Part shown: one piece after another, positions 4,298 to 19,499 of the stretch
Layout: each line of letters opens with the position of its first letter
Numbering within the stretch: position 1 is the stretch's first letter
Source: Massalongia carnosa
Lineage: Eukaryota
Assembly (NCBI GenBank): GCA_965645245.1
Contig: OZ287086.1
Span: forward strand, 496,001-560,000
Length of the DNA stretch: 64,000 bases
Reading direction: 5' to 3'
The notes under the pieces: generated by a model
Told to the model about the DNA's origin: nothing
Seen by the model: only the letters and a program-made list of their open reading frames with translations
The model's database searches: none
Position numbers and translations under genes: made by a program

Positions 4298-4655
4298 ATG
4301 CGGCCGATCTTTGTCGTCATCCTCATCCTAGCATACGGAAGGAAAGAATTCTGCATTCCTAAGAGCGAATTCTCGTTATGCTAACTATTGCTACAGCAGT
4401 AACATTGCCGCCTTATCGTGTTCATGCTTGCTCGAAGGTCTGCTTGAAGTGCAAAGGAATATAGATTGCTGCGAGAAGTCTCCGATCATTATACCGAATG
4501 ATGCGAAATATCTGTGTCCATACGGCCGAGTAAGTCGCCACCCTGTCAAACCCTTGACTAAGGCTCAACATTCTAGTGCTGTGGATGTCCGCATCCAACG
4601 CCGTATCCAACGCTGCTGCTGTGATGACGCTTTATGTGACAACTACTGTTGTTAA
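4298..4655 (+). CDS. Small secreted Cys-rich protein, copy 1 (exons 4298-4341, 4397-4529, 4577-4624 or -4655); last exon possibly frameshifted
   Basis: Spliced product MRPIFVVILILAYGSSNIAALSCSCLLEGLLEVQRNIDCCEKSPIIIPNDAKYLCPYGR-CCG... Intron 1 has a GCTAAC branch, CAG acceptor and GA donor. Intron 2 is GTAAGT...TAG (47 nt). Colinear with the 19120-19499 paralog. Confidence 0.65.
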
Positions 4656-5800
4656 TCAAGAGCGTCACAGCGAGTTGTGATATCGCAGGCAAAAGGAAAC
4701 ACGCACAGCAATAAACGGTCTGGTTTTAAGAAGAATTCTAGAGCTTGAATTTGAGCGGAGTATCTAGAGATGTACATACTTCGATCAAGAATTCTAGATA
4801 AGAATTGAATAGATTAGTTACATGTTGAGAATTGTGAGCTTGCATATCCTAAGAGAATAAACCCTAGTCCCGGCTCTAAATACGACCAGTTCTGAGTTGA
4901 GGAACTCCAGGACTTAAGTTCATGATATATGAAAAGCCTTGTGAATGCCGTGTTAAAACGGGCAACCTATGCCAAATACCGAAACCAGCTGACAAAGCAA
5001 TTTACATCTACCTCGGCAAGAAATGGCCAGTGGCGGTGGCTGTTGAGTTAAATAGGTACCTTAAGGGCGGTTGGGGGTATTCGAACATTGGTCTTGAGAT
5101 GGTCTCAAGATATTATCCACTAGAACGTTCTTGTCATAGTCTATCTACTAAGTGACTACGTCAGTCAAGAAAGCAAACAGTGTTCAGATATTTTATTTTA
5201 AAGACAATCTCATGACTTTATCATAACTAAAATATCTTATAACGTGGGAATGCATGTTACTAATAACAGAATCTCAAGACGATCATGGTTTGAAGATTTT
5301 CATCAGAATAGCTCAAGATTCTTCTGAGTCAGGAGTGCTTTAAACAGGGTGACAGGGTAATATTTGTTTGACATAATCTCAAATTTTTATTTGTGTTTGT
5401 CAGGGTCCTGGCCTGACCCGACATGCTCTGGTGGTCACGGGACAGCGTGACTCACCTAAGCAGTAGCGCGCGTCGCTTGACTGGCTAGCGCACCCACGGT
5501 AGATTATGTTTAGGAGTTCAGCGATGAGTATTCTTTTCTTTCCTTCCTTGTAGTTAAATTCTAGTTCATAGCTACTGAATAATATCAGGGCAAGCTGCCT
5601 GACATAATTTAACTACCTTTAATGCTTATTAGTACTCTTCCAGTCTTCTAGAACTTTCAGCACATTTAGAAAGGGACAACGACCTGCTCCTTTAGCTTTC
5701 CAGAACGACCACTCGTGAGAATTCGAGCTGGTCCTCTCTCCAGAACCTTTAGAACTTCCAGAATCGAAAGACAGAGCTCTTTCACCTCCAGAACACAGTC

Positions 5801-7405
5801 ATGAGTTCGAAAAGTCCCCTGACTGCTCGAAAGGCCGGCGCTCCTCGCGAAGACGCTCAAGCAGGCCCTGCTTTTAACACTCGCGCCCGTTCCATGTCCC
5901 GTCATTCGGCTCGCTCTGATAGTATGCCAGGGACGTTCGAAGACTCCGAGCTTACACCCGGTGAGCAGATGGGAGATGAGACAGAACGCACACTAGAAAA
6001 GACCCCGAAGGCTGGGTCAGGAAATGAGAAGGAAGGGGCTCGCGAGATTGACATCTCGGAACATCCATACTACGAACGAGAAACTCGGAAACATCCCGCA
6101 CGATACAAAATTCGCAACCTAGAAGACTTCCGAAATGCCGTCCTAGACGAGAACGAAGGTCCTCGTTGGTATGAGTTTTTGTCTAGAGCAATTCCCTATG
6201 ACAAAACACTGTACGAAAAAAGCTTCGGGCTTCATGAGAAGCTTATCAAGACCAAGAAGCATTTAGAACAATATAAGCAGATTAATGACCGTTTCGCTGA
6301 CGAAAAGGATGAAGACGAACGCCAAATCCTTCTTGCTCAGGAAGAGCTTTCGCATAAAGAAATTGAGTTGGAAGAAGCCCTCCAGGCCCAACAGGACTTA
6401 CAGAAAGAGAAGGAGAATCTTGAGCGACGGCTAGCAGCTCCCGACTCCTCTCGTGGCCAACGGGAGGACACTGCTACAACCCAGAGCACCACTATAAATC
6501 CCCAGAACTGGCGTCCACGTGGCATTCACCCCAGCAAGCCTCTGAAAGGCGAAGACGCTGAGGAATATAGTCCTTGGCAATACTCACTCCGAAACAAGCT
6601 TAAGACCGATTCTCCGCTTTACGCCAACGAGGGCGAAAAGGTCAGTTATGCTCTATCGCAAATGGAAGCGCCTATCTTTGGGGCTATGCACTCCTGGGTC
6701 GTCGACATGGGCGACTCTCTCACCATTGACGCTCTGTTCGACGAGATCGAACATTATATGGGCATACATCTCCAGAGTCGAGATGCCAAGAAAGAACTCA
6801 TCACCATCACAATGAAAAGTGGTGAAAGTGTAAGCGAGTACTATCATCGAATTTTTAAGCTTTGGCAAAAGGCCAAAACCCCCATCGACGAGAGGATAGA
6901 GAAGTTTCTTGTAACATTGAAGCCAAGCATCTCTAATTCACTGATGGGTTCAGTTTTCACCGACTTTCGTCCCTTGCTCGACGAAGCTAGGAGAATCGAA
7001 GATCGACGCAAGGATGTCGCTCACTACTTTCCTCGGCCAGAGAAGTCTGGTCCGTCAAAGAACTCTGGTCGCGAAGGCAAGTCCTTGAGTGGACAAACCT
7101 CCATTTCCGATTCTCGTCAATCGAGTGCAAAAGAGAAGAAGTCGGGTGATCATCCAAACTCCAAGTTCAGCGCCACGATAGTCAAACCCGCTGGTTGGAT
7201 AGGGGTTTGGTACGATCCTGACCTCAACCCCAAAAAGTTGGAGAAGGAAGAGCGAGAGACATTGTCGCGTCAGGGACGCTGTTGGGCATGTCGGGGGTCA
7301 GGTCATCGAGGAAACGACTCGATCTGCCCTCAATTTAAAGAAAAGAAGCTGAACAGTACAAGAATTGTTGAGATAGACTCTGACTCCGAGTCGGGAAAAG
7401 CTTAG
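5801..7405 (+). CDS. gag: Gypsy Gag (coiled coil, capsid, CCHC knuckle)
   Basis: 534-aa ORF with capsid-like MKSGESVSEYYHRI and the CWACRGSGHRGNDSIC zinc knuckle. Confidence 0.93.
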   Translation: MSSKSPLTARKAGAPREDAQAGPAFNTRARSMSRHSARSDSMPGTFEDSELTPGEQMGDETERTLEKTPKAGSGNEKEGAREIDISEHPYYERETRKHPARYKIRNLEDFRNAVLDENEGPRWYEFLSRAIPYDKTLYEKSFGLHEKLIKTKKHLEQYKQINDRFADEKDEDERQILLAQEELSHKEIELEEALQAQQDLQKEKENLERRLAAPDSSRGQREDTATTQSTTINPQNWRPRGIHPSKPLKGEDAEEYSPWQYSLRNKLKTDSPLYANEGEKVSYALSQMEAPIFGAMHSWVVDMGDSLTIDALFDEIEHYMGIHLQSRDAKKELITITMKSGESVSEYYHRIFKLWQKAKTPIDERIEKFLVTLKPSISNSLMGSVFTDFRPLLDEARRIEDRRKDVAHYFPRPEKSGPSKNSGREGKSLSGQTSISDSRQSSAKEKKSGDHPNSKFSATIVKPAGWIGVWYDPDLNPKKLEKEERETLSRQGRCWACRGSGHRGNDSICPQFKEKKLNSTRIVEIDSDSESGKA

Positions 7406-17584: not shown

Positions 17585-18160
17585 CAATAAATACTTTGTA
17601 TGCCACCCCTCCGCAGCAATAAGTGCTGCCACCCTGCGGGGCATGCTTGCAATCAGTCCATCTATTACCTCCTCACGAATGTTCCCCCATGCCTCCTGTG
17701 GAATGCTAAACAGCTTGGATTCTGCCTCGTCGCCCTTTCCTTCTAGAGAATTGATGTTGGGATAAACTTTGTAGGCCTCTTTCTTGAGAAGGGCCCAAAG
17801 ATTTTCGATGGGATTTAAGTCGGGGCTGTAGGGTGGCCAGTCCATTACCTCTATCCCCCATTCCTTAAACCACGCCTTTGTTTTATTCGCTTCATGAATG
17901 GGGGCATTATCCTGCATGAAAATAAGACCGGGCGTCCTTATTCCTAGCAAGTTGGACTCCAAAACCTGTATCTAGGACTTTGCTGAGTAACCTTGCTTTT
18001 TAGACTCCCAATCCCGCTCCAGAAGATGAAGATCCGACCTTCCCAATCCCCAAAATGCCCCGCATATCATTATACTAAAGGCCTTGCCTTTGGGACCTTC
18101 CTGAAGCTTATCATGATCCCATTTCTGATCAGGAGTTCTAAAAGACCAGTCACCCACTGT
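17585..18160 (-). mobile_element. Tc1/mariner transposase fragment
   Basis: IFMQDNAPIH and WPPYSPDLNPIENLW motifs; stop at 17972-17974; 5' half missing. Confidence 0.9.
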
Positions 18161-19119
18161 ACTTGAGCCACCACCCCATACTTATTTGGGTGGGACCACG
18201 CTTCGATTGGTGGTATAGATTCCCGTACGGTTGACAGCACCCCCACCTGTCAGCAGCTGATCAGCCACCTAATTTGCATGCTGATATCCTCATGATGTTC
18301 AGTTCACACTATGACAAATATAACCAACCGACGAGATGAGGTCCACGACAGCGGGAAACTTTGTTGCATAGACTCCCTGCCGGACATGTTTCACGATCCT
18401 GAAGTCATGTCATAATTGACGCTTTATCTCTTGTTGATCTGTGCTGTAACCTCAACTAGCATCCAACGACGAAGCCCACCAATCGGCGATTCCGATGATG
18501 TCATTCTTTTTCACTGACAGGACTTATTTGTATCAGAAACTTCTTAGCAAAACATATAACTACTCTAGTCATACAGGACGCTTTATCTCGTGATTATCTG
18601 TGCTATAACTTTTACGTAGCCCCCAACGGCGCAGCCTGCCAATCGGCGATTCTGATTATATCACATTCTTTTACTGACAGGATGCATTTGAATCAGAACC
18701 TGTAGATCATAGATCGAACAGCTATTCTAGTCATGCATGATCCTCGTCTTACGATGAACTACATAAAACATCGACGTTAGGATTCAGTTACGTGTTACGT
18801 GTTACGTGTTTATTTGAGGGCTTAATATACTGACGGGTTGGGTTGCGTGTTACGTGTTTATTTGGGGGCTTTAATATACTGACGGGTTGCGTGACCAACA
18901 AGCTGGAATTGCATCGAGATATGCATCCTCGTATTTTTCAATCTTTTTTCTATTGTCAATGAGTGAAAGAGGGGGCAGTGTTAACATAACGCTCTATAAG
19001 ACCCGATCAAGTCCCTATTTTTTTGAGTTCTCAGCAGCTCCTTCCTTCATAACAAGAAACACTTCATCTCACAACTAAGTCCATCACATCGCCGAACAGG
19101 TGACATAATTTCCTACAAC

Positions 19120-19499
19120 ATGAAGTCGATCTTCGTCATCCTCCCCATCCTAGCATACACGAGGAAAGATTACTACATCCCTGAAAGCAAAGTGTCGTTT
19201 TACTAACCATTGTCACAGCGAAGTCATTGCCGGCTACAACTGTAGATGCTTGTTCAAAGGTCAACTTGACCCTGCCCTGACGTACGCATGCTGCGAGCAG
19301 CAACAGGGCATTTTTCAGGATAATCCAACTTATCCGTGCCCTCACGGTCAAGTAAGTCGTCACTCGATCAGGTTTTTACAACATGAAAACCCATGGCTAA
19401 AGCTTAACAACTCAGTGCTGTGGAGATGAGATTGATTTCAATAAATATAGTGGCTGCTGTGGTCGCAGTCCAACAAGCGTTGATTGCTGGGTAGGATAA
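19120..19499 (+). CDS. Small secreted Cys-rich protein, copy 2 (86 aa, 10 Cys; exons 19120-19163, 19219-19351, 19416-19499)
   Basis: Spliced product MKSIFVILPILAYTSEVIAGYNCRCLFKGQLDPALTYACCEQQQGIFQDNPTYPCPHGQCCGDEIDFNKYSGCCGRSPTSVDCWVG*. Hydrophobic signal peptide. Intron 1 is GA..TACTAAC..CAG (55 nt); intron 2 is GTAAGT..CAG (64 nt). TATA-like TATAAG near 18995. Confidence 0.8.

Follow-up and report, generated by a model that had tools for sequence, protein, structure and literature searches.

Two copies of a small gene in the stretch of Massalongia carnosa DNA analysed here (the window; 64,000 nt of contig OZ287086.1, positions 496,001 to 560,000) raise the question of whether an intron that opens with GA rather than GT can be spliced, and kept, in a fungus. 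A sequence-only reading of the window had described, in both copies, a signal-peptide exon ending AG/GAAAGA (donors at 4342 and 19164), then 55 nt with CTAAC and CAG, and then a 133-nt exon; read-through was said to reach a TAA in the branch site, and splicing at the GA site of copy 2 to give an 86-residue protein with 10 cysteines. Each of these points was borne out, with all coordinates and counts in agreement (Table 1). Exon 1 of either copy encodes methionine, a basic residue and then an 11-residue hydrophobic core; the cleavage motif of this putative signal peptide was judged by eye. Read-through from the ATG stops after 28 codons in both copies, at the TAA within CTAAC, and removing the GA–AG interval and intron 2 from copy 2 leaves 261 nt that encode 86 amino acids and a stop. 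The coding sequence of copy 2 is intact across all three exons. Exon 3 of copy 1, in the assembly sequence, is shifted in reading frame relative to copy 2, the Cys-rich tail that aligns with copy 2 lying in the +1 frame (4578–4655), which is still open; owing to this shift, copy 1 may be decaying, or a pseudogene.

Table 1. Features of the two gene copies, in window coordinates
Feature	Positions	Strand	Remarks
Copy 1 5′ flank and putative 5′ UTR	4172–4297	+	start of homology to copy 2 (blastn, alignment)
Copy 1 exon 1	4298–4341	+	44 nt; ATG at 4298; hydrophobic leader; 14 codons + 2 nt, phase 2; ends AAG
Copy 1 putative GA–AG intron 1	4342–4396	+	55 nt; GAAAGA start; CTAAC at interval positions 40–44; CAG end
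Copy 1 exon 2	4397–4529	+	133 nt; 5 Cys, in the same columns as copy 2
Copy 1 intron 2	4530–4576	+	47 nt; canonical; GTAAGT...CTAAG...TAG
Copy 1 exon 3	4577–4655	+	spliced frame stops at 4622–4624, 15 codons
Copy 2 5′ flank and putative 5′ UTR	18996–19119	+	conserved with copy 1 (blastn, alignment)
Copy 2 exon 1	19120–19163	+	44 nt; ATG at 19120; hydrophobic leader; 14 codons + 2 nt, phase 2; ends GAG
Copy 2 putative GA–AG intron 1	19164–19218	+	55 nt; GAAAGA start; TACTAAC; CAG end
Copy 2 exon 2	19219–19351	+	133 nt; 5 Cys
Copy 2 intron 2	19352–19415	+	64 nt; canonical; GTAAGT...CAG; 17-nt length difference from copy 1
Copy 2 exon 3	19416–19499	+	5 Cys; TAA stop
Copy 2 3′ flank/UTR	19500–19791	+	homologous to copy 1 4678–4942, 66% over 277 nt (blastn)

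The GA of copy 2 is no assembly error, because contigs from four of four public runs, drawn from two studies, match this copy exactly, with no differences at the donor, although runs X1–X3 may be the source of the assembly itself. All of the matching contigs, in all four runs, are unspliced and DNA-like and contain no joints.

We enumerated every donor/AG-acceptor pair that leaves the ATG frame open into exon 2, which gave 126 frame-preserving combinations for copy 1 and 153 for copy 2. Only three models that keep the leader are common to both copies: GA–AG of 55 nt, GT–AG of 22 nt (4375–4396 and 19197–19218, in phase in both) and AT–AG of 64 nt. A 40-nt GC–AG interval occurs in copy 2 only. 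Apart from the implausible 22-nt GT–AG, the enumeration found no GT or GC donor that is conserved in both copies and keeps the leader. The earlier claim that no workable GT or GC donor exists holds, with qualifications for the 22-nt interval in both copies and the 40-nt interval in copy 2.

The GA–AG model also carries the signals of an intron. Its length of 55 nt compares with 47–64 nt for the five canonical GT–AG introns recognised in the window, and in both copies the branch A of CTAAC lies 43 nt from the intron 5′ end and 12 nt from the 3′ end. Scored in register against the U1 motif, the GA sites show complementarity at 8/10 positions in copy 1 and 7/10 in copy 2, the window's five bona fide GT donors pair at 4–8 of 10, and only 1.9% of window positions reach at least 7/10. 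A 23-nt block spanning the end of exon 1 and the donor has exactly two occurrences in the window (0.03 expected by chance), and two matches arose in none of 100 shuffles. GA–AG is the sole well-signalled splice model that is common to both copies and keeps the leader. U12-type introns have the donor /RTATCCTT and a TCCTTAAC-like branch site; the donor here is GAAAGA and the branch site T[GA]CTAAC, and a U12-type (minor) intron was rejected. Rfam gave no RNA family of any kind within the window.

How the two copies have diverged bears on whether the donor was used. They align by blastn from 4172–4541 to 18996–19363 (71% over 373 nt), and exon 2 is less similar (78/133 identical) than the non-coding flanks and introns (345/455; Fisher p = 1.8e-4). 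Gap columns number 0 in exon 2, 0 in intron 1 and 17/64 in intron 2. All five exon 2 cysteines are kept (5/5), and there are no stops; random substitution at the observed divergence kept 5/5 Cys in a fraction of 6.5e-4 of 200,000 simulations, and kept them with no stop codon jointly at P about 1.1e-4. Because exon 2 has diverged beyond the non-coding flanks, yet without an indel and with every cysteine kept, the gene was probably functional after duplication. This case for coding constraint stands on 5 Cys, 44 codons and zero indels; the exon 2 dN/dS of about 1.2 (dN 0.63, dS 0.54) does not by itself separate positive selection from neutrality. Within intron 1, the splice-signal positions (+1 to +6, CTAAC and CAG) are identical at 14/14, compared with 27/41 of the others (one-sided Fisher p = 0.008, in a comparison set up only after the alignment had been inspected). 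The identical block at the donor is only 8 nt long and has mismatches on either side, which argues against a recent gene-conversion patch. These patterns point to a gene whose coding frame and splice signals were both under selection once it had been duplicated. Such conservation favours a used donor over one that died before the duplication and, judging from these two copies alone, GA was probably present already in their common ancestor.

We favour the reading that intron 1 of both copies is a genuine GA–AG intron, of a rare class already reported in fungi, and give it a probability of roughly 0.55. On this view a lineage-specific gene of three exons, encoding a small secreted Cys-rich protein, would have been duplicated long ago, and the copies would be paralogues that have since diverged to about 71% DNA identity. 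Intron 1 would be an ordinary U2-type, phase 2 intron just past the hydrophobic core of the leader, with the donor AG/GAAAGA in place of AG/GTAAGA. If the gene kept making protein with GA, the spliceosome would use, or would long have used, that donor; U1 could still pair at −2, −1, +1, +3, +4 and +5, and the perfect CTAAC, 12 nt from the CAG, might aid commitment. An A at +2 would make splicing inefficient, probably at exon ligation, and much of the pre-mRNA may then keep the intron, with the message ending 28 codons in, at the in-frame TAA. If this reading is true, a fungal GA–AG intron has survived both the duplication of its gene and about 40% divergence of the exon, a donor with A at +2 can be stable over evolution and is not only a loss-of-function allele, and the pair is a concrete case of genes for small secreted proteins that go unseen by GT/GC-only gene finders when a fungal genome is rich in transposons.

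That GA–AG is a rare reported class, as the sequence-only reading stated, agrees with fungal cases: it is listed among the 0.31% minor splice-site types of Fusarium graminearum (PMC3577648), and Table 1 of the Ganoderma lingzhi study gives 35 GA–AG sites, or 0.038% (PMC11590231). This is the class that the present introns would join, as short U2-type introns with a GA donor, although the fungal cases were called from transcripts whereas ours is drawn from gene structure and paralogue conservation only. The Fusarium and Ganoderma passages do not report diverged paralogues that share a conserved GA donor (PMC3577648, PMC11590231). GA–AG introns with RNA-seq support are described for Eurytemora affinis and for Oikopleura dioica (Frey and Pucker 2020, PMC7072748), and there, as in both copies here, AG precedes the donor GA, A follows it and the acceptor is a plain AG. 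Those species, however, are animals with thousands of such introns and possibly a variant U1 (PMC7072748), whereas here a single intron in two fungal paralogues is known from DNA alone and the five other introns recognised in the window start with GT. A human FGFR GA–AG intron is spliced efficiently, reportedly in dependence on a canonical GT six nucleotides upstream (PMC7072748). An FGFR-type arrangement was rejected here: the upstream 10 nt contain no GT in either copy (CATACGGAAG and CATACACGAG).

The most serious competitor, which we consider unlikely, is that the donor is dead. Both loci would be pseudogenes, or alleles that have lost their function, of a gene whose intron was formerly a canonical GT–AG; its +2 would have changed late from T to A, independently in each copy or via a short conversion tract, and transcripts would keep the intron and end after 28 codons. 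GA is a known null or near-null allele in a fungal effector gene: in an isolate of wheat powdery mildew (Blumeria), a GT-to-GA donor allele of AvrPm8 is described as leaving splicing ‘largely abolished’ (PMC9909948). The likeness extends to a small secreted-protein gene, a transposon-rich ascomycete and a premature stop on intron retention (PMC9909948). The AvrPm8 GA, however, is a recent loss-of-function polymorphism of one isolate (PMC9909948), whereas here GA is common to two copies and the coding frame has been kept through the exon divergence. In yeast a U2A donor is severely defective, exon ligation (the second step) being blocked (PMC4836653). In these tested cases +2 A is strongly deleterious, which counts against GA–AG splicing here, and the earlier step from GAAAGA conservation to a functional donor is only partly upheld: constraint on frame, cysteines and splice signals supports it, but the +2 A defects in Blumeria and yeast do not (PMC9909948, PMC4836653).

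Further points would fit a dead donor. Copy 1 carries the exon 3 frame shift, which may reflect late decay, and no protein homologue or spliced product was found in the protein collections searched. The pair also sits among young transposons. Identical 207-nt LTRs lie near it at 5398–5604 and 11564–11770, the window has transposon Pfam matches, and the setting is a transposon-rich stretch of an ascomycete-like genome with young LTR elements; gene decay is common in such settings. Against this, had GA been null before the duplication, five of five cysteines, an open frame and no exon 2 indels would be very unlikely (P about 1e-4), and a pseudogene inactivated before duplication was rejected, exon 2 having no gaps, no stops and all its cysteines. 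The same transversion arising twice is improbable, and the 8-nt identical donor tract is short for typical gene conversion. Copy 2 remains intact in three exons, and conservation extends to the rest of the donor, to the branch site and to the acceptor. If intron retention is all that occurs, the pair would represent donor-site inactivation in a fast-evolving secreted-protein family, an ordinary outcome.

It is very unlikely, in our view, that the frames are joined in some other way, by the 22-nt GT–AG mini-intron, by the 64-nt AT–AG intron (from 4333 and 19155) or by a +1 ribosomal frameshift in the overlap of roughly 50 nt. Both intervals are in phase in both copies, and upstream of exon 2 its frame stays open as far as 4332 and 19154, overlapping the ATG frame, with an AGG codon at the overlap start in both copies that we take to resemble a Ty1-type +1 frameshift site. 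The mini-intron, however, would place its branch A a mere 9 nt from the donor, is under half the length of the shortest recognised intron in the window (47 nt) and has donors that pair with U1 at only 3–4 of 10; the AT donors pair at only 4–5 of 10 and are without ATATCC, a U12-type motif. Against a frameshift, the codon preceding AGG differs between the copies and, as we read it, would be unable to re-pair in the +1 frame, the read-through region is without third-position bias (3, 3 and 5 differences at codon positions 1, 2 and 3), and a conserved CTAAC and CAG at the right distance are what an intron needs, not a frameshift site. That the true product is the read-through peptide of 28 codons (the hydrophobic leader plus 14 residues), with exons 2 and 3 as relics or untranslated, is hardly credible: both copies do have exactly 28 codons and the same TAA, with 6/14 post-leader residues identical, but the differences are without codon-position bias and the cysteine retention, indel-free exon 2 and canonical second intron are left unexplained.

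A bolder form of the favoured GA–AG reading, which strikes us as improbable, would have selection maintain the GA donor as an expression gate, with intron retention as the default and the message ending after 28 codons. Productive splicing might then be confined to certain conditions, such as those in a host or those in which a given variant of the spliceosome is present, and GA–AG first introns might be the hallmark of a secreted Cys-rich family that is lineage-specific and left unannotated by standard gene finders. The ‘splicing-efficiency throttle’ on this gene pair proposed in the sequence-only reading is purely conjectural.

The tblastn search for further paralogues that was suggested earlier brought none: blastn and tblastn found only the two copies in the window, and no orthologue or further paralogue was found for donor comparison. 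The term ‘effector or toxin family’ would have as its sole basis the leader peptide, the cysteine pattern and the quick exon divergence. Searched against Pfam, the exon 2 peptide of copy 1 and both exon 3 peptides gave no match. Exon 2 of copy 2 alone matched DUF5948 (PF19373), a small fungal protein without known function according to Pfam, at 14.9 bits (E = 0.031), below the 23.7-bit gathering cutoff and over profile positions 1–43 of 70; this sub-threshold match is the only family hint for either copy. Directly upstream of the conserved 5′ flank of copy 2 lies a TATAAGA-like box, near 18985–18995.

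We place the probability at roughly 0.55 that copy 1 (ATG at 4298) and copy 2 (ATG at 19120), two old paralogues of an orphan gene for a putative secreted, cysteine-rich protein, carry a genuine and probably inefficient GA-AG first intron; this assessment comes from comparing the two copies and their signals. When the sequence was re-read, the boundaries reported for both copies in the sequence-only reading proved correct to the base. In line with that reading, the unspliced frame from either ATG meets a TAA within the CTAAC motif, here after 28 codons, and splicing both the GA interval and intron 2 out of copy 2 leaves 261 nt, encoding 86 residues and a stop, with 10 cysteines. 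These are the only two copies in the window by blastn, tblastn and a pattern search (2 matches versus 0.03 expected). Exon 3 of copy 1 (4577-4655) is shifted in frame relative to copy 2: the spliced frame ends after 15 codons, and the cysteine-rich tail alignable to copy 2 is found in the +1 frame, where 25 codons stay open, pointing to a recent event or an error of sequence or assembly. Directly upstream of copy 2 is a tandem duplication of ~160 nt (18409-18701), the units of which are 78-83% identical.

Coordinates of the two gene copies and of neighbouring features in the window
Feature	Positions	Strand	Description
Copy 1 exon 1	4298-4341	+	44 nt: M, basic residue, 11-residue hydrophobic core
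Copy 1 GA interval	4342-4396	+	55 nt, GAAAGA start, CTAAC at positions 40-44, CAG end
Copy 1 exon 2	4397-4529	+	133 nt
Copy 1 intron 2	4530-4576	+	Canonical GTAAGT, 47 nt; last exon follows
Copy 2 exon 1	19120-19163	+	Plan as in copy 1
Copy 2 GA interval	19164-19218	+	Plan as in copy 1
Copy 2 exon 2	19219-19351	+	Plan as in copy 1
Copy 2 intron 2	19352-19415	+	64 nt
Copy 2 exon 3	19416-19499	+	Plan as in copy 1
Gypsy-type LTR retrotransposon, between the copies	5398-11770		207-nt LTRs at 5398-5604 and 11564-11770, 100% identical
Further Copia-type (RVT_2, integrase, gag) and DDE transposase fragments	416-3443, 20982-24748, 35148-40127, 61628-62566		Several long open frames
NB-ARC/AAA_16-TPR NLR-like gene	~45105-50203		~21 TPR repeats
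GT-AG introns of the NB-ARC/AAA_16-TPR gene	45165-45216, 45499-45552, 46451-46508		52, 54 and 58 nt

The region around copy 2 (18720-19900) was compared with contigs from four public sequencing runs belonging to two studies, none of them on record as RNA. Three of the runs, which may be the source data of the assembly itself, each provided one contig of ~2 kb that spans the whole region with 0 differences; the fourth, from the other study and under another organism label, provided three short contigs (18720-18769, 18782-19288 and 19318-19494), which likewise showed 0 differences. Because the contigs of all four runs agree, the GA at 19164-19165 is not an assembly error. The contigs include both introns, and neither joints nor loose ends occur in this region; the contigs are thus uninformative on splicing. 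Those public contigs that carry copy 2 break off at about 18265 and 20263, where repeats presumably lie.

Exon 2 is identical between the copies at 78 of 133 positions, equally across the three codon positions (26/44, 24/44 and 27/44), which is lower than the identity of the two introns and the 5′ and 3′ flanks taken together (345/455; Fisher p = 1.8e-4). Coding sequence that is less conserved than non-coding sequence is the pattern of fast-evolving toxin and effector families. Across 4098-4856 versus 18920-19699, exons 2 and 3 are 59% identical and the introns and flanks ~76%, and synonymous divergence (0.54) also lies above the non-coding divergence between the copies. The dN/dS of exon 2 between the copies is ~1.2, a value that by itself fits either positive selection or neutrality. 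No gap column interrupts the alignment of exon 2 or of intron 1; intron 2 differs by a 17-nt indel, and several gaps fall in the flanks. The exon 2 peptides share 15 of 44 residues, yet all five cysteines are kept (5/5), an outcome seen in 6.5e-4 of 200,000 simulations with an equal number of random substitutions; the five cysteines and an open frame survive together in ~1.1e-4. The protein appears to have been under selection during much of the period since the duplication.

Within intron 1, the splicing signals (+1 to +6, CTAAC and CAG) are identical at 14/14 positions versus 27/41 elsewhere (one-sided p = 0.008, for signal and non-signal classes set after the alignment had been viewed). Around the donor, identity extends over just 8 nt before mismatches occur on either side, which is unlike a recent conversion tract; most simply, the GA would be ancestral to both copies. 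Given selection after the duplication and a GA that is probably ancestral, a donor that was already null before the duplication is very unlikely.

Late inactivation of the donor, in which the GA arose late in both copies, is the main competing explanation. It accords with published cases in which an A at +2 impaired splicing where tested : U2A blocked exon ligation in yeast reporters (PMC4836653), and a GT-to-GA allele of the AvrPm8 effector gene of wheat powdery mildew left its intron largely unspliced (PMC9909948). The shifted reading frame in exon 3 of copy 1 also counts against the GA-AG reading. For the GA to be late in both copies, the change must have arisen in parallel or been passed on by a short conversion long ago; we regard this explanation as unlikely.

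Splicing at another site was assessed by pairing every donor position with every AG acceptor such that the frame from the ATG continues unbroken into exon 2; copy 1 offers 126 such pairs and copy 2 offers 153. Just three of these models retain the leader, the hydrophobic N-terminal stretch encoded by exon 1, and recur at homologous positions in the two copies, namely the 55-nt GA-AG, a 22-nt GT-AG and a 64-nt AT-AG. Donors were scored for pairing with the 5′-end motif of U1; the GA sites form 7/10 and 8/10 pairs, matching the range of the five real GT donors (4-8/10), and at least 7/10 pairs are reached at only 1.9% of window positions. We regard as unlikely the 22-nt GT-AG (4375-4396, 19197-19218), in which 9 nt separate the donor from the branch A and only 3-4/10 U1 pairs form in register, as well as the 64-nt AT-AG, with 4-5/10 pairs. 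The remaining GT and GC donors would remove the leader, as do the GT donors at 19125, 19135, 4313 and 4316, or are confined to one copy, as is that of the 40-nt GC-AG interval of copy 2 (19153-19192), which is without a branch motif. The earlier claim that no GT or GC donor of workable intron length keeps the leader holds, qualified by the 22-nt GT-AG (both copies) and the 40-nt GC-AG (copy 2).

The frame of exon 2 contains no in-frame ATG in either copy. In blastn alignments the two copies become homologous only ~125 nt before the ATG, and a shared upstream first exon is therefore unlikely. The GA-AG intron is not of U12 type. We dismissed an opposite-strand gene (ORFs of only 37-38 aa), IRE1/HAC1-type unconventional splicing (junctions that, by eye only, mismatch the loop consensus), A-to-I editing (which, by reasoning only, would make the GA resemble GG rather than GT) and a dikaritin-like precursor, to which the read-through peptide bears a resemblance only (repeats are absent, and the window carries no cluster genes).

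The proposal of a functional GA donor in two paralogues is partly supported: it has the anatomy, the lack of a canonical alternative and the conservation of signals and frame in its favour, and has against it the deleterious effect of a +2 A in tests. If the GA-AG intron is genuine, AG/GAAAGA would be recognized by U1 through six pairs (-2, -1, +1, +3, +4 and +5), and commitment would be reinforced by a perfect CTAAC, extended to TACTAAC in copy 2, that lies 12 nt from the CAG. The +2 A would then slow catalysis, leaving a sizeable share of transcripts unspliced and ending at the in-frame TAA. That this inefficiency is itself under selection, the 'throttle' put forward in the sequence-only reading, seems distinctly improbable.

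GA-AG is, as had been stated, a recognized rare intron class (PMC7072748, PMC3577648, PMC11590231). Such introns are described as frequent in two animals, Eurytemora affinis and Oikopleura dioica, where they have the donor context AG/GA+A, as in copies 1 and 2 (PMC7072748). The FGFR case in the same source is said to depend on an upstream GT, whereas both copies here are without one. In fungi, GA-AG is reported at very low frequency: it is listed among the minor types in Fusarium graminearum (PMC3577648), and 35 sites (0.038%) are given for Ganoderma lingzhi (PMC11590231). In the open-access literature searched, we found no account of diverged fungal paralogues that share a conserved GA donor.

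Searches of proteins, profile representatives and metagenome contigs returned no homologue, so the GA state is not polarized and the protein is not shown to exist elsewhere. Against a set of 5.8 billion proteins, copy 2 exon 2 returned four candidates in 'longer' mode, none at E ≤ 0.01, and none in 'near' mode. Both exon 2 peptides, used as a profile against 1.84 billion representatives, gave two matches at E ≤ 1e-3, one of which (P0002) is unrelated. The other (P0001; library E = 6e-6) is a 732-aa PT-repeat protein that has only a local motif of 16-22 residues in common with the profile; the motif occurs five times (9-30, 174-195, 279-294, 502-523 and 607-622), resembles residues 1-22 of copy 2 exon 2 with identities of 11/16 to 11/22, and leaves the remaining cysteine framework without similarity. 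This likeness is probably convergent or due to chance. A 23-letter DNA pattern with 19 bases specified and donor +2 unconstrained had 0 matches in metagenome contigs, and a search for related loci gave 135 pattern matches, 0 of them confirmed. The sole hint of a family came from the copy 2 exon 2 peptide, which alone scored 14.9 bits against Pfam DUF5948, below the cutoff of 23.7; this family has a single mention in the literature searched, as a predicted effector candidate in a table of a Septoria pan-genome paper (PMC11196620). The family and homology tests all used peptides of separate exons, which restricts their reach.

The window is rich in transposons, with the Gypsy-type element, several Copia-type reverse-transcriptase/integrase fragments and two DDE transposase fragments. 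Inserted between the gene copies, apparently very recently, the Gypsy-type element carries an open pol of 1,360 codons (protease, RT, RNase H and integrase), with a frame of 550 codons upstream of it. Judged from open frames only, the transposon fragments bear no sign of heavy repeat-induced point mutation. Open frames at 14878-15903 (341 codons), 16227-16937 (236) and 52753-53625 (290) had no Pfam match at E ≤ 1e-5, and Rfam had 0 matches over the whole window. The NB-ARC/AAA_16-TPR gene, the nearest Atlas clusters of which are mainly from Ascomycota, forms one open frame of ~1,640 codons once its three introns are removed. With the second introns of the paralogues, these make five canonical short introns in the window, which argues that the genome splices ordinarily and that 55 nt is a typical intron length there. 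A frame at 44645-45139 is a possible N-terminal domain of the NB-ARC/AAA_16-TPR gene.
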